In this document: one piece after another, positions 1 through 6,287 of the stretch | How the letters are laid out: each line of letters starts with the position of its first letter | Position numbering within the stretch: the stretch's first letter is position 1 | Translations under genes and position numbers: made by a program | IMG/VR virus record: IMGVR_UViG_2695420792_000001 | Location: 1-6,287 of that record | Length of the DNA stretch: 6,287 nt | DNA from: a virus | Taxonomy: Monodnaviria; Loebvirae; Hofneiviricota; Faserviricetes; Tubulavirales; Inoviridae | Strand: one strand, 5' to 3' | Notes under the pieces: generated by a model | The model's database searches: none | What the model was told of the DNA's origin: nothing | Seen by the model: only the letters and a program-made list of their open reading frames with translations

Positions 1-84
1 TTCGGGGGAAAAACGAGTATTTTTAGTCATCCTGTTTACCTCTTTCTCAGGAAGTTTAGTCTCCAGGATTCCCGGGGCGGTTCA
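1..84 (-). mobile_element. Partial IS3-family insertion sequence (IS629/IS1203-like), orfA-proximal terminal inverted repeat end; element body extends leftwards out of the window
   Basis: Bases 1-84 are the exact reverse complement of 5960-6043, which contains the terminal repeat TGAACCGCCCCGGGAATCCTGGAGA and the start of the transposase OrfA ([11 protein letters not shown]...). The element terminus is at position 84 (…TCA on the + strand). Confidence 0.85.
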
Positions 85-118
85 GGTTTCGATATCGATT
101 AAAGGTTCGATTCTGAAA

Positions 119-1048
119 ATGTCGGGAAATCCATCCCGATGGAACAGACTGGACAATTTGTTTGGTCACACTTCTGTTGATGCCTGTGTGCAGGTATACA
201 ACCGGATCCTGAATGACCTTGGTCTGCCGGAATTCACAAAATGTACGAAATTGTGGCAGAGACAGGCAAGTGAAACTGAAAAGGCCGGAACGGTTACTGA
301 TGGCGCATGTATTCGTGAAATTCACATTACATCCAACCGAACAGTCGGAGCAGATAATGTAGATGACTATATATCGGGCCTTTCAACATTACGGTATCGC
401 AATAGTGAGCCGCGATTACACAGCAACGGTAAATCAGTTGACTGGCTATCCAAAAAAGGAAACGCCTTGCTCATTTATCCGACTGTATATAATAAAGCAC
501 ATGAAATTAAGCTTCACTCCCTTAATAAAATAAAGAATAAATTCGGGGATTCATCAGCTGAAGTTTCATACATCAAAAAGATTATTGATTTCTGTCAGGA
601 ACAGGGCGTAGTCAGATTTGAGCAAAAACTTAAATCCCGGTATCTGCAACGTAACCATCTTATTTACTGGGGGCTTTCCGACTATTCAATACTCAATAAT
701 TTACATGATGATTTTTTAGCTCTTGATAAAAAGCTTATGGTGACGTCGATGGATTTTGAAACGATTAGTGAACATTTAATCAGTGAAGGCATTGTTGACT
801 CAACTCGATCAGCGAATACCACTGCGATGTATGCTATCCAGTGGATGCACGGTCACTCATTTGATTTTTCTAAAACACAGGTGCAAACCCATCGTGCCAG
901 GCTTAGAAAAATAGGTATTGACATTGCTCAGCGATGTAATATTTCCAAATTTAGCCCCGTTATTGTTAAGAAAGTGAGAGAAGTATCAGTAAGTGAATGC
1001 TTTATTCCATCATGGTATGTGAAACCACGTTATTTGCATGTTGCATAA
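119..1048 (+). CDS. Replication initiation protein (gene II-like), 5'-truncated by the IS insertion; reading frame is open upstream to the IS junction at 85 and into the IS, so Met119 is not the native start
   Basis: Large ORF immediately upstream of the gene V homologue, as in the Ff gene order. The frame has no stop between position 29 and 1048, so it runs across the IS junction. It contains a Y-x3-Y-x-K motif (IYPTVYNK, nt 476-496) reminiscent of catalytic tyrosine motifs in rolling-circle initiators. No direct sequence alignment is possible from memory. Confidence 0.55.
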   Translation: MSGNPSRWNRLDNLFGHTSVDACVQVYNRILNDLGLPEFTKCTKLWQRQASETEKAGTVTDGACIREIHITSNRTVGADNVDDYISGLSTLRYRNSEPRLHSNGKSVDWLSKKGNALLIYPTVYNKAHEIKLHSLNKIKNKFGDSSAEVSYIKKIIDFCQEQGVVRFEQKLKSRYLQRNHLIYWGLSDYSILNNLHDDFLALDKKLMVTSMDFETISEHLISEGIVDSTRSANTTAMYAIQWMHGHSFDFSKTQVQTHRARLRKIGIDIAQRCNISKFSPVIVKKVREVSVSECFIPSWYVKPRYLHVA

Positions 1049-1060
1049 GAGGATATTTAA

Positions 1061-1348
1061 ATGATTAAGATTGAAATTAAACAGTCTCAGGCCATTGCCG
1101 ATACGCGTTCTGGCGTGTCGAAGTCGACCGGGCAGGCGTATACAATTAATGAGCAGTCTGCATATATTTTTCTTGGCCAGGATTATCCACAACTCTTCAA
1201 GTTGAATCTTGACGCGGGTCAGGCACCATACCCGGCGGGATTATATACATTACATCCATCCAGTATTTACGTCGGTGATTTCCAGAAATTACGGGTAGGA
1301 AGAATCGTTCTGATTCCATATCAGGAAAATAAAGAACAGACTAAATAA
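1061..1348 (+). CDS. ssDNA-binding protein, Ff gene V protein homologue
   Basis: The 95-aa product MIKIEIKQSQA..TRSGVS...YTINEQ..Y..LG..YP.L.K..LD.GQ.PY..GLYT.H.SS..VG.F aligns along most of its length with recalled M13 gVp (MIKVEIKPSQAQFTTRSGVSRQGKPYSLNEQ...GLYTVHLSSFKVGQF). RBS AAGAGGA sits about 8 nt upstream. Confidence 0.9.
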   Translation: MIKIEIKQSQAIADTRSGVSKSTGQAYTINEQSAYIFLGQDYPQLFKLNLDAGQAPYPAGLYTLHPSSIYVGDFQKLRVGRIVLIPYQENKEQTK

Positions 1349-1357
1349 GGTATCGCT

Positions 1358-1576
1358 ATGGCTTCTCAGAATATAATGACTGGTAAGATTTGTGATGGCA
1401 ATACTGAGCAGAACTGCCAGATAATAACATTAAATTCCTCTGAGTTGCCATATCAGCAGCTCCCTCCGGCAGAAGATATTGCACTGGTATGGGGAACTGC
1501 TTTTACCTCTGTAATCGTCCTTTATTTAGTATCACACTGTATTGGACTCGTTTTAAATATGATAAAGAGAGCCTAA
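1358..1576 (+). CDS. Small protein with C-terminal hydrophobic segment, in the position of Ff genes VII/IX (putative minor virion cap protein)
   Basis: 72-aa ORF between the gene V and gene VIII homologues. It has a hydrophilic N-terminal half and one C-terminal hydrophobic helix (ALVWGTAFTSVIVLYLVSHCIGLVL). An AGG motif lies upstream. The call rests on synteny only. Confidence 0.4.
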   Translation: MASQNIMTGKICDGNTEQNCQIITLNSSELPYQQLPPAEDIALVWGTAFTSVIVLYLVSHCIGLVLNMIKRA

Positions 1577-1578
1577 TT

Positions 1579-1800
1579 ATGAAAAAGACCATTTTGAAAT
1601 CAGCTGTTGTTATTGCTTCCGTAGTACCTTTTCTGGCTAATGCAGCAGAGTCTGCCGGAGTGGATTTTACTGCATTGACTAATGCAGTGTCATTCGACAG
1701 TGTAATTGTGGCAATTATGTCCGTAGCCGGCATTTTGGTTGGTCTTTATGCCTCCATTGCCGGGGCAAAAACAGTTCTGCGTATGATCCGTGGGGCCTGA
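1579..1800 (+). CDS. Major coat protein precursor (gene VIII-like), 73 aa
   Basis: MKKTILKSAVVIASVVPFLANA is a signal peptide with an A-x-A cleavage site. The mature part has an acidic N-terminus (AESAGVDF), a hydrophobic core and a basic C-terminus (KTVLRMIRGA). Length equals the 73-aa M13 pVIII precursor. I prefer the ATG at 1579 to the ORF-track start at 1489, which would overlap the preceding gene. Confidence 0.8.
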   Translation: MKKTILKSAVVIASVVPFLANAAESAGVDFTALTNAVSFDSVIVAIMSVAGILVGLYASIAGAKTVLRMIRGA

Positions 1801-1807
1801 TAATACG

Positions 1808-1825
1808 GGCAGGGGAAACCCTGCC
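1808..1825 (+). terminator. Stem-loop downstream of the major coat protein gene (GGCAGGG-GAAA-CCCTGCC), candidate intrinsic terminator
   Basis: A perfect 7-bp GC-rich stem with a GAAA tetraloop begins 8 nt after the gene VIII stop. The downstream T tract is weak (TTCAGGAGTTTCTG). Ff phages carry a terminator at this position between genes VIII and III. Confidence 0.45.
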
Positions 1826-1922
1826 TTCAGGAGTTTCTGTGATATTACATTTCTGGCTAATTACCTGTTTTCTCTGGGGTCTTCTTTGTGCCTGGGCAGT
1901 TATAAAAGGATTAGGAGGGTAA

Positions 1923-3188
1923 ATGAAAACTCTTTTAATTGCATTGTTGTTATCTATCATTAGCTTTTATTCATACAGTGCAGAGAACGCAGCTGTTATT
2001 AATCAGACCATTTCAGGAACCATTAAAAACAAAATTACACAGCGTGGTTTCTCAGCGAATGATCCTCGATACTACGGAACATTAAAAGGTATTTCAGGTT
2101 ATCTAAATTCTACCGCTTCAGGTTCGAAAGCTTATACCGTTGCAGGTGTCTCTGGTCGTTCGTGGTTATCAGTTGGACTCAGAGGGGCTTTGTTAAGCCG
2201 CGGTACGCTTATAGCTCTTGCCGCTTCCGGTGCGGTGGCATGGCTAATTGAGACTGAGGACTCCGTACAAATCAAAGTAAAAGAAATAACGGGAGAGCAG
2301 GGTGTTAAAGGGTTTTACTGGAATATTGGCGCAGAAAGCTATGTTACAGCAACTGAGGGAGCTCAGTCGATATGCCAGCATAATCCGGCGTTCTGTCAGA
2401 CATACATAGTTGAGCAATATAATGCAGACCCGACAAGGTCTGATTTAAGAACCATCAAATTTTATATTGATTCATCTAAAACACAGCTTTGGGCATCACG
2501 AACTGCAAACCTTGTTTCCTGCGGTACAAATAAGGTTATGCCTACATGTCAGCCTGATTATGTGCCGGGTAGTAATGAAGTAATTAAAACCGTTAGCGTA
2601 CAGGATGCTATTAATAGCATTTCAGATACGGAAATGCAGACAGATCTTTCGCCAGAAGTTATTTCTGATGTTGTAAATAATGCATGGCAAAAAGCAGCCT
2701 CCGAAGCAGGGTATTCTGGTTTTGCATACGACCACACCAGACCAGTGACAGCGCGTGATGTAACTGCTTCAACTGGTGCTGCAAAGCCCGCTGTATCTGA
2801 CTTTCTCAAACCGTCAGACAAACCCGATTTTACACTACCTGCTGACACAACAGGGACAACACCAACCAATCCATCGACAGGAGAACAGGTTAATCTTGGT
2901 GATGATCCTGGTATTGGGCCGCCTGAACTGGAAAATATACCTGCAGGTACTGAAATTTTATCTCCATTATTATCATTCAACCCCTTTGAAGATTCAGCCG
3001 ATGCACTTAATGCAGAAAGCGAAAGAATTAAATATGCGGAGTGTCCAAAACCTGTACTGGATGTTTTTAACGGACAATATAAGTTAGAAACACATTGTAC
3101 ATTATTAAATAATAACGCTGCGATGATTGGTGTTATTTTTCTGTTCATTTACTCAATAGCAGCGTTCAGAATTATCCTTTCTGCATAA
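1923..3188 (+). CDS. Adsorption/minor coat protein (gene III-like), 421 aa
   Basis: Strong RBS AGGAGG about 5 nt upstream. The signal peptide MKTLLIALLLSIISFYSYSAE resembles the recalled M13 pIII leader (MKKLLFAIPLVVPFYSHSAE). The C-terminus has two Cys (ECPKP...THCTLL) followed by a membrane anchor (AAMIGVIFLFIYSIAAFRIIL), as in M13 pIII. A Pro/Thr/Gly-rich linker lies in the middle. Size matches pIII (424 aa). Confidence 0.85.
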   Translation: MKTLLIALLLSIISFYSYSAENAAVINQTISGTIKNKITQRGFSANDPRYYGTLKGISGYLNSTASGSKAYTVAGVSGRSWLSVGLRGALLSRGTLIALAASGAVAWLIETEDSVQIKVKEITGEQGVKGFYWNIGAESYVTATEGAQSICQHNPAFCQTYIVEQYNADPTRSDLRTIKFYIDSSKTQLWASRTANLVSCGTNKVMPTCQPDYVPGSNEVIKTVSVQDAINSISDTEMQTDLSPEVISDVVNNAWQKAASEAGYSGFAYDHTRPVTARDVTASTGAAKPAVSDFLKPSDKPDFTLPADTTGTTPTNPSTGEQVNLGDDPGIGPPELENIPAGTEILSPLLSFNPFEDSADALNAESERIKYAECPKPVLDVFNGQYKLETHCTLLNNNAAMIGVIFLFIYSIAAFRIILSA

Positions 3189-3197
3189 AGGTGATTT

Positions 3198-3485
3198 ATG
3201 TTTGGCATCATGACCTCTGTTTTATATGGCGTTCTTGGGTTTTTATTGCGCTCAGTTATTGTGAAGTTTACGGTGTTTTTTGCATTGTATTTTATTGTGC
3301 AGGAATTCGTGCCGCTTATTCTCGATATGGTTAATCGCCAACTCCCACTTCTTGCGTTAATTTCAAGTATTCCAGATAGCCTGAAATATTTCTTCTCTGT
3401 TTTTAAAGTTATAGATGGGATTAACATAATACTTTCAGCTTTTGTGACTCGCTTTATTATTCGTCGAATTCCGGTAATAGGATAA
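3198..3485 (+). CDS. Minor coat protein (gene VI-like), hydrophobic 95 aa
   Basis: Highly hydrophobic small protein immediately after gene III and before gene I, matching Ff synteny. RBS AAGGTGA upstream. Confidence 0.7.
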   Translation: MFGIMTSVLYGVLGFLLRSVIVKFTVFFALYFIVQEFVPLILDMVNRQLPLLALISSIPDSLKYFFSVFKVIDGINIILSAFVTRFIIRRIPVIG

Positions 3486-3489
3486 TTTT

Positions 3490-4515
3490 ATGGCTGTATC
3501 ATTGTATATGGGTGTGATGGGGAGCGGTAAAACATACGAGGTTGTTTACAGTGTTATTATCCCTGCGGTTTCAGCAGGCCGCCGTGTAATCACCAATATC
3601 AAAGGGATAAATGAAGAGAAAATACATGAGTATTGTCGTTCTAAATTCAAGACTAAGCAGCCTGGTCGTGTTGTTTTCGCATCGACGGATGAAATATTAA
3701 AGGATGATTTCTTCCCTTTTTACTCTGATGATGAATCTTCAGAACAAAAAGCAGCATTTTGTGAATATGGTGATCTGATTTGTCTTGATGAATTATGGTC
3801 AATATGGCCATCGGACTCAAAACTATCTGAGGCACATAAAAGATTTATTTCAATGCACCGTCATATGACACATGCTGTTAGTGGGGTATCATGTGATTTG
3901 GTCATCATCAATCAGGGTGTAGATGGTGTACCCCGGTATCTTAAAGAGCGTATTGAATCGACATACCGGATGACCAAACTAAAATCTTTGGGGCTATCAA
4001 AGTCATATCGTGTCGATGTTTTTTCTGGTGCCAAAGTATTCAAAAATAATAAAGTCAGTACTCGTAACTATCAGTACAAAAAAGCCGTTTTTGAATTATA
4101 CAAATCTTATGAAACCACTAACGGAATGGAAGCGACAACAGACTCTAGACAAAACGTTTTTTCATCCGCCTTTCTTTGGGTGAAAATTGCATTTTTATTA
4201 TTTATTGTACTGGCTTCTATATATTCAATAAGAACGGTCTGGGTGGATATTAGAGGAGAGTCAGTACCAGAGCCGAAACATACCGAACCGGAGGTTGTAC
4301 TGCCTTCATCAGAAAAGATTGCGAAACCTGATGCCCCGTACTCAAAGCGCTGGCGTATTGCCGGGGAGTTAAAATCAGATTATGTCAGCAAGGTTGTTCT
4401 TACAGACAGCAATGGTCGGTTTAGAACGCTACCGGCAAATCAGTTCGACGGAGAAGGTTTTACTTTAAGTGGAATCATTGATGGTGAAATTGTCACCTAT
4501 TTTACTGGGGGTTAA
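3490..4515 (+). CDS. Phage assembly protein pI (Zot-family P-loop NTPase), 341 aa
   Basis: The N-terminus MAVSLYMGVMGSGKTYEVV carries a Walker A motif (GxxGSGKT) and resembles recalled M13 pI (MAVYFVTGKLGSGKT). A single transmembrane helix (FLWVKIAFLLFIVLASIYSI) lies about two thirds along the protein. It sits directly upstream of the secretin gene. Confidence 0.9.
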   Translation: MAVSLYMGVMGSGKTYEVVYSVIIPAVSAGRRVITNIKGINEEKIHEYCRSKFKTKQPGRVVFASTDEILKDDFFPFYSDDESSEQKAAFCEYGDLICLDELWSIWPSDSKLSEAHKRFISMHRHMTHAVSGVSCDLVIINQGVDGVPRYLKERIESTYRMTKLKSLGLSKSYRVDVFSGAKVFKNNKVSTRNYQYKKAVFELYKSYETTNGMEATTDSRQNVFSSAFLWVKIAFLLFIVLASIYSIRTVWVDIRGESVPEPKHTEPEVVLPSSEKIAKPDAPYSKRWRIAGELKSDYVSKVVLTDSNGRFRTLPANQFDGEGFTLSGIIDGEIVTYFTGG

Positions 4516-4516
4516 T

Positions 4517-5728
4517 ATGAAATTATTTTATATCATAATAATGGTATTTATGATTCCACCTGCATTATCAAAAGGCGTTATACTGAATCTCTCAGGATTA
4601 ACGCTTAATGATGCCATTACTTTGTTTTATACTGAAGTTATGAGAAAACCGTTCATGGTTTCTCCTGAACTTATCACGGACAAACGACAAGTTAATTTCA
4701 ATATTACGCCAGATATGGATGAGTATACGTTTATTATGCGTTATCTCCAGAATGCCGGAGTCTCTGTAGCCAGAAAAAATGGTGTGGATTACTTTTATCT
4801 CCAGGAGAAAAAAGTATACGAAGCCCCGAAATATTCTTTTGTTTACACACCACAGTACCGTTCTGTTGCTTATCTGGCTGATATTCTTCAGTCACAAGTG
4901 AGCGGGTCATTTTCAAATGGTGGGCAAATAGGGCATGGCGATGTTTCTCCTGCGATGATTAAAGACAATACCGCATCCGATTTTTTGAGCAGAAATGGGG
5001 ATGTACTTGTTTTTTACGGTACGAAAAAAGACATTCAGCGGGTCGAAGATTTGCTTCCTCTTATCGACCGGGCCGCCGAAGAAGTTATTGTCGCCGGGTA
5101 CGTGTTTGAGGTTCAGACGTCTGAGCGAAATGGTTCTGGCCTGGCACTGGCTGCCAAACTTATGTCGGGAAAATTCACAATAGAAACGGGTACTGCACAA
5201 GGACTCAGCAACTTTGTCCGTTTCAGTTCTGGATCGCTCGATGCACTTTATGAGTTGTTCAGAACAGACAGCCGTTTTCACGTCGTCAGTTCGCCACAAT
5301 TGCGGGTCAGAAATGGCTCTAAAGCATCATTTTCTGTGGGATCTGACGTGCCGGTACTCGGTCAGGTCAGCTATGTTGATGGTCGTCCGGTTCAGTCCAT
5401 TGATTATCGTTCAAGTGGCGTAATTTTTAACGTTCAGCCGCAAATCCGGGCTGCTACGATTGACCTTAATATTCATCAGCAACTGTCTAATTTTGCAAAA
5501 ACAGAGACTGGGGTGAATAACAGCCCGACGCTCATTAAACGGGAGGTGAACACCGATGTTTCGCTCAAGGATGGCGACATAATTTTACTTGGTGGTCTGG
5601 CTGAGAATAAAGACAGTAATGCAGATACGGGCCTGTCATTTTTGCCGTCATGGTTCGGAACAACGGCAACTGAAAAAGCAAAAACAGACATCATTATTGT
5701 ACTTCAGGCCAGAAAAATCAGGCGGTGA
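4517..5728 (+). CDS. Secretin, phage pIV-like outer-membrane export channel, about 403 aa
   Basis: Signal peptide MKLFYIIIMVFMIPPALS. The C-terminal secretin-type region (VSLKDGDIILLGGLAENKDSNADTGLSFLPSWFG) resembles the recalled pIV C-terminus (…MDGQPLLLGGL…GVPFLSKIP…). I chose the start at 4517 because it follows the gene I stop (4513-4515) and a GGGGG RBS; the ORF-track start at 4469 would lie inside gene I. Confidence 0.88.
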   Translation: MKLFYIIIMVFMIPPALSKGVILNLSGLTLNDAITLFYTEVMRKPFMVSPELITDKRQVNFNITPDMDEYTFIMRYLQNAGVSVARKNGVDYFYLQEKKVYEAPKYSFVYTPQYRSVAYLADILQSQVSGSFSNGGQIGHGDVSPAMIKDNTASDFLSRNGDVLVFYGTKKDIQRVEDLLPLIDRAAEEVIVAGYVFEVQTSERNGSGLALAAKLMSGKFTIETGTAQGLSNFVRFSSGSLDALYELFRTDSRFHVVSSPQLRVRNGSKASFSVGSDVPVLGQVSYVDGRPVQSIDYRSSGVIFNVQPQIRAATIDLNIHQQLSNFAKTETGVNNSPTLIKREVNTDVSLKDGDIILLGGLAENKDSNADTGLSFLPSWFGTTATEKAKTDIIIVLQARKIRR

Positions 5729-5959
5729 GAGCAGGGCGGCCAGCCCCGCAGCTCCGTGAGGAGCTGGCCGTACTGAGACACCGACTGTTGATTGATTGTG
5801 TAAATCATGAACGGCGTGATTTGCGCATGCGCAAATTTCTCGTCAATTCTTATGGGGAATCTATGGCTACAAAGTTGAAGTTTATCCGACTGAAAATTGA
5901 AGATGAGTTAATCCAGCCGGTTAATAATCTGGCAGGCATTCGCGATGAGTTAAAGGCCG
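5729..5959 (+). promoter_or_regulatory. Remnant of the phage intergenic region, truncated at 5959/5960 by the IS insertion; contains a GC-rich dyad and a perfect 18-bp palindrome
   Basis: Located after the gene IV stop, where Ff phages carry a terminator, the packaging signal and the origins. Hairpin CAGCTCC-GTGA-GGAGCTG at 5749-5766, or the alternative CGGCCAGC/GCTGGCCG pairing at 5737-5770. Perfect palindrome ATTTGCGCATGCGCAAAT at 5819-5836. Confidence 0.5.
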
Positions 5960-6287
5960 TGAACCGCCCCGGGAATCCTGGAGACTAAACTTCCTGAGAA
6001 AGAGGTAAACAGGATGACTAAAAATACTCGTTTTTCCCCCGAAGTCCGTCAACGGGCAGTCCGTATGGTTCTGGAAAGTCAGGATGAATATGACTCACAG
6101 TGGGCGGCAATTTGTTCCATTGCCCCAAAGATTGGCTGTACGCCGGAGACTCTGCGTGTCTGGGTTCGCCAGCATGAGCGGGATACCGGGGCGGTGATGG
6201 TGGGCTCACCAGCGCTGAACGTCAGCGTCTGAAAGAGCTGGAACGTGAAAATCGTGAACTGCGCCGCAGTAACGATATCCTTCGCCA
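5960..6287 (+). mobile_element. Partial IS3-family insertion sequence (IS629/IS1203-like), orfA-proximal end; element continues beyond the window
   Basis: Terminal repeat starts TGAACCGCCCCGGG at 5960. OrfA begins at 6014 with [23 protein letters not shown]…[18 protein letters not shown], which matches my recollection of IS629 OrfA. Identical over 84 bp to the inverted copy at 1-84. Confidence 0.9.
6014..6232 (+). CDS. IS3-family transposase OrfA (helix-turn-helix N-terminal part); frame is interrupted before the leucine-zipper segment, which continues in the -1 frame from 6178 to the window end
   Basis: The ORF encodes the HTH-like N-terminus and stops at 6230-6232. The leucine-zipper-like sequence [19 protein letters not shown] is read in the -1 frame from 6229 onward. 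The two frames overlap at 6178-6232, around a G4 run at 6188-6191. Confidence 0.7.

Follow-up and report, generated by a model that had tools for sequence, protein, structure and literature searches.

A pIII-type protein of a dif-adjacent filamentous prophage and its relationship to the Ff phage adsorption protein

The open reading frame at positions 1923-3188 of a 6,287-nucleotide stretch of inovirus DNA (the window) probably corresponds to gene III in a filamentous prophage that integrates next to dif and is unrelated to the Ff phages. Its assignment as pIII is well supported by sequence comparison, because the gene occupies the slot between a pVIII-like gene and those for pVI, pI and pIV, encodes a Sec leader and has C-terminal homology to annotated CoaA/pIII proteins; by analogy, a location in the virion and a role in receptor binding are putative. 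The host range of filamentous phages is set by pIII. To our knowledge, pIII heads are understood for only a few of these phages, namely Ff, IKe, If1, CTXphi and Pf. The present gene is of an ordinary kind, in a large and poorly charted protein family that has no solved head structure.

Gene order and state of the prophage

In the module of the window, pII and pV are followed by two small proteins, of which the latter is pVIII-like, then by the pIII reading frame, pVI (DUF2523), pI/Zot and the pIV secretin (Table 1), and the order is identical in E. coli EC4, E. coli 6EVA and Pseudomonas iridis. The frame, with its Sec leader, lies between gVIII and gVI-gI-gIV, and a position directly upstream of pVI and pI is shared by the window, EC4, 6EVA, Pseudomonas iridis, Dulem virus 52 and PMBT54. 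A pVI-type protein is the expected virion-cap partner of pIII. The start of pIV at 4517 is that of the RefSeq homologue annotation mapped onto the window, the longest open reading frame beginning at 4469. A terminator scan did not call the hairpin 3' of gene VIII. On the reverse strand, a 196-amino-acid reading frame (2558-3148) lies inside the pIII gene, its openness being its sole support.

The prophage in the window is a dead, defective remnant, interrupted on both sides by IS629 ends and with a truncated gene II. The pIII gene is intact, yet its product is probably not to be expected in phage particles arising from this copy, and in so defective a prophage the gene may no longer serve any function. 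As it sits in a dead, IS-flanked remnant, its immediate biological consequence for the window is small. The junction of IS629 and gene II is absent from all 5426 complete E. coli genomes. The intact prophage adjoins hipA and a perfect dif site and is present in tandem copies in E. coli EC4; a plasmid search with the element gave no match, and the element is therefore not plasmid-borne. When the gene was used as query for blastn in 'distant' mode, nine of the 5426 E. coli genomes were recovered, all at 99% identity or more, so that gene III of other E. coli filamentous prophages must lie below about 65-70% DNA identity. Identity of the element with CUS-1 was considered and is weakened by this confinement to nine rare E. 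coli genomes; CUS-1 and YpfPhi are dif-integrated filamentous prophages of E. coli and Yersinia with an adsorption gene of the puvA/YPO2277 type. The genome organization of YpfPhi has been likened to that of CTXphi (review PMC4266046).

Table 1. Features of the pIII-type gene and its neighbours (nucleotide positions in the window; aa, residues of the pIII-type protein)
Feature	Position	Strand	Basis
pVIII-like major coat protein gene, upstream neighbour	1579..1800	+	phrog_2186 E 1e-18; PF05356 weakly, E 0.029
Shine-Dalgarno AGGAGGG, upstream of ATG 1923	1913..1919	+	direct sequence reading
Gene III equivalent, probable; 421-aa pIII-type minor coat/adsorption protein	1923..3188 (incl. stop codon)	+	ORF listing, translation, gene order, family
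Predicted Sec signal peptide, aa 1-18	1923..1976	+	MK start, hydrophobic core, small residues at -3/-1, likeness to M13 leader
Conserved N-terminal head part, aa 19-110; two long helices	1977..2252	+	conservation profile, AF2
Variable beta-rich head part, aa 111-216; candidate host-specificity module	2253..2570	+	low identity, predicted strands
Conserved helical region, aa 217-296	2571..2810	+	PHROG/tblastn match limits, AF2
Pro/Thr-rich linker proper, aa 297-320	2811..2882	+	composition, moderate conservation with some gaps, pLDDT
Most conserved motif of the family, QVNLGDDPGIGPPELENIPAGTEILSPLL, aa 321-350	2883..2972	+	information content 2.8-2.9
Cys374...Cys392 segment, predicted beta-hairpin	3042..3098	+	invariant Cys, AF2 strands
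C-terminal hydrophobic helix/predicted membrane anchor, aa 393-421, ending RIILSA	3099..3185	+	hydropathy, AF2 helix
pVI-type minor coat protein (DUF2523), downstream neighbour	3198..3485	+	PF10734 E 1.5e-13; phrog_974
pI/Zot assembly ATPase	3490..4515	+	PF05707 E 1.7e-25
pIV secretin	4517..5728	+	PF00263; phrog_1012 E 7e-124

Organization of the protein

The leader MKTLLIALLLSIISFYSYS (followed by AE) shares 12 identities with that of M13 g3p over 21 aligned positions, and cleavage is predicted after S-Y-S, parallel to S-H-S in M13. The BLOSUM62 local score of 50 was reached by none of 20000 shuffles and compares with an average of 19 (sd 6) for the 152 leaders scored, which include near-identical copies. 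Only the E. coli/Salmonella subclade shows this likeness, the leaders of other family members being unrelated. At the DNA level the identity to M13 is 57%, with the same codon used for six of the 12 identical residues and one serine encoded by AGT instead of TCC, and this codon usage rules out a recent transfer of the leader DNA from an Ff phage. The Ff-like leader described in the earlier note thus holds as a protein-level likeness of the E. coli and Salmonella copies, with no backing in the DNA.

The head (aa 19-296) comprises three parts. The first contains the RGFSANDPRY motif (aa 41-50, information content 3.1) and a Gly/Ala-rich segment (GRSW...LAASGAVAW), and G42, D47, P48, R49, T53, W81 and W107 are each retained in at least 90% of 95 sequences; AF2 gives aa 21-80 a pLDDT of 86-96 and aa 81-110 one of 72-81. 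The variable part has a mean identity of 14% to distant members, as against 28-36% elsewhere in the protein, and carries four cysteines (Cys151, Cys158, Cys200 and Cys209), the columns of which are all retained in the family consensus. Among close enterobacterial relatives it is not more diverged than the rest (65% versus 57-72%, Salmonella copy). Residue 217 marks the start of a C-terminal half that is common to phrog_3942 and other metagenomic inovirus pIII proteins, and many family representatives match best only across about 217-415; here aa 221-280 have a pLDDT of 91-97 and aa 281-296 one of 85-92.

In agreement with the earlier note, none of the comparisons carried out related this head to the N1/N2 domains of Ff g3p. 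The protein had no Pfam match at E<=1, and the N1 domain PF05357 (Phage_Coat_A) was matched by none of the 95 family members; as positive controls, M13 g3p (E 6e-66), IKe (2e-8) and If1 (1e-31) all matched PF05357, and IKe also matched PF21443. A pilus-binding domain of either the M13 N2 fold or the IKe type (PF21443) was not found in the protein, BLASTP and hhalign against Ff g3p gave no N-terminal similarity past the leader, and PDB sequence searches with the protein or the 95-sequence profile gave no meaningful match. Structure prediction yielded a compact head, for which a fold search returned neither Ff N1/N2 nor any other PDB entry; its query was the first, weaker AF2 model (pLDDT 68.9, head 75-90), so that a distant relative in fold may have escaped. 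The second model, built on 95 sequences (pLDDT 82.3), has a compact head followed by a hairpin and then a long helix.

The Pro/Thr/Gly-rich segment noted earlier at about nt 2808-2950 exists as aa 297-344 (nt 2811-2954; 9 Pro, 8 Thr and 6 Gly among 48 residues), and glycine repeats of the GGGS or EGGGS type are absent from the protein. Only aa 297-320, the sole low-complexity stretch, is linker-like, with pLDDT of about 86 at aa 301-310 dropping to about 50-53 at aa 311-320, the remainder of the segment belonging to the conserved motif at aa 321-350. In this motif P329, P334 and P348 are invariant and G326, D328, L336, P340, T341 and I345 are retained at 90% or more. It served successfully as a search pattern for relatives and is of low confidence in the monomer AF2 models.

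In the C-terminal module, Cys374 and Cys392 are invariant in the 95 aligned members. Of 138 members, 127 have a spacing of 17 residues between the two, and this arrangement followed by 29 further residues is kept in 127-134 of the 138. Both AF2 models place strands at 378-381 and 384-387 (pLDDT 85-92 in the second) and a helix over aa 390-420, and the 19-residue Kyte-Doolittle mean rises to 2.4 at aa 399-419. Three hhalign runs against the Ff CT domain, with either M13 g3p alone or an M13/IKe/If1/I2-2 alignment, gave E values of 0.023, 0.24 and 0.072 with a probability of at most 2%, the Cys pair and the anchor being in register, and neither the protein nor the family profile found the f1 tip structure 8b3o in the PDB sequence search. 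The previously noted resemblance to M13 therefore stands for the architecture, a Cys pair and a 29-residue hydrophobic tail; homology is not significant.

The family and its relation to other inoviruses

The family to which the protein belongs numbers at least 1275 cluster representatives at 50% identity from beta- and gammaproteobacteria and is carried by E. coli, Salmonella, Yersinia, Pectobacterium, Pseudomonas and betaproteobacteria, with full-length relatives in Pseudomonas, Uliginosibacterium, Undibacterium and Pectobacterium. It matches phrog_7187 (E 8.2e-47, three stretches) and phrog_3942 (E 2.2e-34, aa 217-421), as do the Pseudomonas and Uliginosibacterium homologues; since neither entry has a functional annotation, such a match places the protein in a catalogue and assigns it no function. 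Pfam contains no model for the family, and the PHROGs entry is given as function unknown. Among 50,697 phage records searched by tblastn with the protein and its Pseudomonas homologue, two or three metagenomic inoviruses gave matches, C-terminal only, and no cultured phage was matched. A literature search by RefSeq protein accessions found no paper on the protein.

The closest link to recognized coat proteins lies in the last 50-60 residues, which in hmmsearch with the 95-sequence family profile are homologous to CoaA of Pseudomonas phage 36-2 (E 1.6e-16) and to ORF8 of phage PMBT54, annotated as coat protein (E 6.5e-20). Both genes occupy the same slot and share the pattern CP..x..HC followed by a hydrophobic helix ending LSA or LTA, and PMBT54 likewise has a DUF2523-type pVI, Zot and a secretin of its own. 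Their heads (approximately the first 370-420 residues), however, have no significant similarity to that of the window protein, and the RGFxxNDPR and 321-350 motifs are unmatched. This homology, together with the gene slot and the Sec leader, bears out the earlier identification of the frame as pIII. XCD06565.1 of Dulem virus 52, an inovirus from a lemur-saliva metagenome, matches the family profile over its full length (E 2e-48); in the circular genome its gene comes just before a pVI-like frame and Zot, with a gspD secretin after Zot, and its pI is 41% identical to that of the window. It differs in its length (531 aa), in that BLAST aligns only aa 221-421 (29% identity) and in being uncharacterized and uncultured. 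Inovirus D_HF5_61, grouped with Dulem virus 52, is a metagenomic inovirus that also has a related protein in the gene III slot.

Compared with g3p of Ff, IKe, I2-2 and If1, the protein shares the gene slot (VIII-III-VI-I-IV), a comparable size (421 aa, against 424-460 aa), a cleavable Sec leader (FYSYS/AE here, FYSHS/AE in M13), a disulfide-containing N-terminal part (predicted here) and a Cys pair right before the C-terminal anchor (17 versus 16 residues apart). In contrast to them it has no PF05357, PF21443 or GGGS-type linkers, and its tail has 29 residues ending LSA, whereas that of the Ff type has 35 ending in the charged RNKES. The pVI protein is of the DUF2523 type, and that of M13 of the DUF5455 type; the window pI is closest to those of gut-metagenome inoviruses (36-41%); and the pIII PHROGs of the lineage (7187, 3942 and 21195) do not overlap with those of Ff, IKe and If1. 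Judged by these sequences, above all the DUF2523 pVI, pI and PHROGs, the prophage belongs to a lineage other than Ff, and to call the phage Ff-like would be misleading.

It could nevertheless be argued that the protein is a true remote homologue of Ff g3p that has kept the leader and the C-terminal domain, N1/N2 having been swapped by recombination. The leader is indeed much closer to that of M13 than expected, ECPKP...HC and the hydrophobic helix fall in register with ECRPF...DC and the anchor of M13 in both BLASTP and hhalign, and residues 259-301 of IKe/I2-2 align weakly with aa 273-298, collinear with the rest. We nonetheless regard this origin as unlikely, in view of C-terminal alignments that do not reach significance (E 0.02-0.24), the separate PHROG families, the lack of an M13-like leader in most family members, the divergence of the leader DNA including its serine codon, and the fact that pVI and pI also come from non-Ff families or lineages. 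An adhesin or secreted protein foreign to the phage, encoded by chance beside phage genes, would be in keeping with the lack of a Pfam domain and with the annotation of the frame as just 'hypothetical protein'; this is extremely improbable, given that the gene III slot is kept at every locus examined in at least five genera, that cultured inoviruses have annotated CoaA/coat proteins homologous to the C-terminal module and that family members were found inside inovirus modules only. The gene III equivalent of a non-Ff filamentous prophage remains our preferred reading.

Proposed role in entry

The gene represents a family of more than a thousand clusters with neither a Pfam model nor a solved relative. 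Identification of its receptor would explain the spread of dif-integrating inoviruses among enterobacteria that lack F pili, and would supply a new module with which the binding of M13 particles could be retargeted, an approach that is already being pursued (PMC12477597).

If it behaves as Ff pIII and Pf CoaA do, the protein would be exported by Sec with removal of the 18-residue leader, and the C-terminal hydrophobic helix would hold it in the inner membrane awaiting assembly. It would be added, alongside the DUF2523 pVI-type protein, as the final cap while the virion leaves through pI and the phage-encoded pIV secretin. The C-terminal module, consisting of the 321-350 motif, the disulfide-stapled hairpin (374-392) and the helix (393-421), would then be buried in the virion tip, and the globular, disulfide-containing head, held on the short Pro/Thr-rich tether, would bind the host. 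The conservation pattern suggests that aa 19-110 and 217-296, including RGFxxNDPR, most likely contact something conserved among proteobacteria, with a Tol-type co-receptor and the membrane as candidates, and that host specificity most likely resides in the variable beta-rich insert (aa 111-216). The absence of an N1/N2-like domain makes it plausible that the receptor is neither the F pilus nor that recognized by Ff N2, and the different pilus type or receptor proposed in the earlier note is a reasonable expectation.

An alternative is that the conserved N-terminal head is a membrane-active penetration device, RGFxxNDPR and the Gly/Ala stretch inserting in the host envelope while receptor binding resides elsewhere. 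Within 90 residues downstream of NDPR, 85% of 96 members have a 19-residue window with a Kyte-Doolittle mean of at least 1.6; the uncharged run there, which has a TAPAW turn at its centre, has a median of 46.5 residues and could span a membrane as a hairpin. The window protein and its enterobacterial relatives, however, have Arg78, Arg87 and Arg93 within the stretch, which leaves at most 16 uncharged residues in a row, and AF2 confidently places it in a compact soluble head, so that we consider such a device very improbable. It can further be speculated that the conserved head scaffold (RGFxxNDPR, the roughly 46-residue Gly/Ala stretch and helical region 217-296) is a new entry module, widespread among proteobacterial inoviruses, that replaces the TolA-binding N1 and either binds another conserved envelope component or inserts in the membrane. 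We hold this to be improbable; were it true, more than 1000 inovirus lineages would enter by a route undescribed for Ff, CTXphi and Pf. The Gly/Ala-rich stretch is transmembrane-like in most members of the family.

Identity and distribution of the pIII-type protein

The flagged ORF and its translation are as the earlier note described them, with a strong Shine-Dalgarno sequence, and the assignment to pIII is borne out by gene position, leader, C-terminal anchor and a match to CoaA, the pIII of Pseudomonas inoviruses. All inovirus genes of the 6287-base window lie on one strand according to the ORF listing, Pfam and PHROGs. The sequence evidence that argues most strongly for pIII comes from the profile of 95 diverse family members, which matches over the C-terminal 50-60 residues both CoaA of Pseudomonas phage 36-2 (E 1.6e-16) and the ORF8 'coat protein' of the cultured phage PMBT54 (E 6.5e-20). 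These two proteins occupy the same gene slot as the window protein, and PMBT54 carries a DUF2523-type pVI, Zot and its own secretin, all as in the window's phage.

Features of the window and subdivision of the 421-aa pIII-type protein (nt, window positions; aa, protein positions)
Feature	Position	Domain, family or character
IS629 left end, inverted	nt 1-81	
Phage DNA	nt 82-5959	
Replication protein pII	nt 119-1048	PF05155, PF05144
ssDNA-binding protein pV	nt 1061-1348	PF02303
72-aa protein, hydrophobic tail	nt 1358-1576	phrog_3679
pVIII-like coat protein	nt 1579-1800	phrog_2186
Hairpin	nt 1808-1825	GGCAGGG-GAAA-CCCTGCC
Flagged ORF (pIII-type)	nt 1923-3188	
Open ORF, 196 aa, minus strand	nt 2558-3148	
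pVI-type protein	nt 3198-3485	DUF2523, PF10734
pI/Zot	nt 3490-4515	PF05707
pIV secretin	nt 4517-5728	PF00263, phrog_1012
ORF downstream of pIV	nt 5725-5988	cut by right-hand IS629 end
IS629 left end, inverted	nt 5960-6287	
Conserved segment	aa 21-110	RGFSANDPRY at aa 41-50, information content 3.1
Variable segment	aa 111-216	14% identity to distant members
Conserved segment	aa 217-296	mainly helical (predicted)
Pro/Thr-rich linker	aa 297-320	moderate conservation, some gaps
Most conserved segment	aa 321-350	information content 2.8-2.9; P329, P334, P348 invariant
Conserved C-terminal module	aa 351-421	C374 and C392 invariant

A word-indexed search returned 14 relatives only (E. coli, Salmonella, Yersinia enterocolitica and Pectobacterium), and an exhaustive profile search returned 1275 cluster representatives (E<=1e-3), of which 386 reach E<=1e-30. 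The profile matches are mostly full-length; a sizeable minority match best only from about residue 217 on. Further members were found by genome scan in Kluyvera, Pseudomonas iridis, Uliginosibacterium and Undibacterium, with the gene order of the window kept in P. iridis. None of the 95 diverse members has a meaningful Pfam match, and in PHROGs the family is represented by phrog_7187 and phrog_3942, each of 'unknown function'. Among 50,697 phage records searched by tblastn, no full-length member occurs in a cultured phage and a few metagenomic inoviruses match over the C-terminal half; Dulem virus 52 gives a full-length match to the family profile. The window protein is a member of this large uncharacterised family, here within a dead prophage remnant.

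Comparison with Ff phages

The reported absence of the Ff head domains N1/N2 holds. PF05357 is matched by the g3p of M13, IKe and If1 (IKe also matches PF21443), whereas the window protein and its relatives match neither; BLASTP against Ff g3p aligns the leader alone, and the PHROG families of Ff g3p and of the window's family do not overlap. The 'Ff-like' framing has no significant domain match behind it, and the neighboring genes are non-Ff as well: pVI is a DUF2523 protein here and a DUF5455 protein in M13, and pI is closest to gut-metagenome inoviruses (36-41%), then to Pseudomonas and Vibrio phages. Three profile-profile comparisons place ECPKP...HC and the helix in register with ECRPF...DC and the anchor of M13, at E 0.02-0.24 and a probability of at most 2%; on this alignment, homology of the C domains is possible.

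The leader is M13-like, as had been noted, with identities at 12 of 21 aligned positions of M13 g3p, FYS[YH]SAE included. Its BLOSUM62 local score of 50 against the M13 leader compares with a mean of 19 (sd 6) over 152 scored leaders, a set that takes in two near-identical copies of the window protein scoring 50 and 48, and was matched by none of 20000 composition-preserving shuffles. Within the family, such a leader occurs only in the E. coli and Salmonella copies. The leader DNA is 57% identical to that of M13, the same codon is used in only six of the 12 identical residues, and one Ser is encoded by AGT versus TCC. Because the likeness is confined to E. coli and Salmonella and has no DNA counterpart, we set aside shared Ff heritage and read it either as chance or as convergence toward a leader well suited to E. 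coli Sec/LepB. The earlier observation is largely right. Inoviruses as a rule differ from one another in their pIII heads (PMC12477597).

Anatomy and proposed function

The protein was subdivided from per-column information content across the 95 sequences and from identity to distant members. Its six cysteines lie at 151, 158, 200, 209, 374 and 392. The pLDDT of AlphaFold2 models was 68.9 with 10 sequences and 82.3 with 95, secondary structure being unchanged. The models contain a confident helix-plus-sheet head (aa 22-296), a region of low confidence (aa ~311-370, pLDDT roughly 46-76) and, between the invariant cysteines, a confident beta-hairpin (378-381/384-387), followed by a long helix (390-420). 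The C-terminal geometry is nearly fixed, with Cys-17-Cys in 127 of 138 members and then 29 residues in 134 of 138, and the usual ending is L-x-A. The Pro/Thr/Gly-rich peptide that had been called a linker is present, a few bases from where it was placed (aa 297-344, nt 2811-2954), and the label fails for its second half: because aa 321-350 are the most conserved in the family, this half is, judged by sequence conservation, a functional motif and not a spacer.

A hydrophobic window of TM grade follows the NDPR motif in 85% of 96 members, and the uncharged Gly/Ala-rich run after RGFxxNDPR has a median of 46.5 residues and a central TAPAW. In the enterobacterial subclade that includes the window (2085-2252, aa 55-110), the run is broken by conserved Arg78, Arg87 and Arg93, the longest piece being 16 residues. 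This stretch may be either a buried core or a membrane-active element, and it is the basis of an unlikely reading of the conserved head scaffold as a new inovirus entry module.

The proposed pathway is drawn by analogy from what is established for Ff pIII and Pf CoaA. The window protein would be exported and its leader cleaved, the C-terminal helix would park it in the inner membrane, and the protein would join pVI in capping the end of the virion as it is extruded through pI and pIV. Adsorption would occur via the head on a short Pro/Thr tether. Read from conservation only, a conserved scaffold (aa 19-110 and 217-296) may engage a conserved envelope component and the variable Cys-containing insert (aa 111-216) may set specificity; the insert is not especially diverged among close enterobacterial relatives. 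It is plausible that the receptor differs from the F-pilus tip, because the protein lacks an N2-like domain and has full-length relatives in Pseudomonas and betaproteobacteria.

The prophage remnant and its intact counterparts

The element is a defective remnant between two IS629 left ends in inverted orientation: on one side IS629 has removed some 62 codons from the N-terminal end of gene II, which is intact, at 371 aa, in E. coli EC4, and on the other it cuts the gene downstream of pIV. A search of 5426 complete E. coli genomes showed the exact IS629 junction in none and the intact element (>=99.5% identity) in nine, all chromosomal. In both genomes examined, EC4 and 6EVA, hipA adjoins the intact prophage. 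EC4 carries it in tandem copies (EC4 record 7198-21851), a perfect 28-bp dif site lies directly past it in 6EVA (6EVA record 14876-14903), and a Kluyvera contig with a 66%-identical gene stops inside dif (last 17 bases). By analogy with CTXphi, CUS-1 and YpfPhi (PMC4266046), this hipA/dif setting would mark a filamentous prophage of the Xer/dif-integrating kind and is consistent with XerCD/dif integration.

Between the tandem copies of EC4 (13764-16935) lies an accessory module that encodes a HigA-family antitoxin, an MltR-family regulator, an HTH repressor, a DUF2971 protein and one hypothetical protein; the DNA upstream of the first copy is unlike this module. In the window, the 72-aa protein encoded between the pV and pVIII-like genes has a C-terminal hydrophobic helix and belongs to a PHROG of unknown function; this one longer protein takes the place of genes VII and IX of Ff. 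The hairpin, 8 bases past the pVIII-like stop, has a 7-bp GC-rich stem and a GAAA loop, with a weak T-tract, and was not called by a terminator scan. The gene VIII terminator of Ff and Pf1 sits at the matching position. The minus-strand ORF wholly within gene III is probably spurious. At its longest the secretin ORF opens with GTG 4469 and shares 47 bases with the end of pI, and RefSeq homologues begin at the ATG corresponding to 4517.
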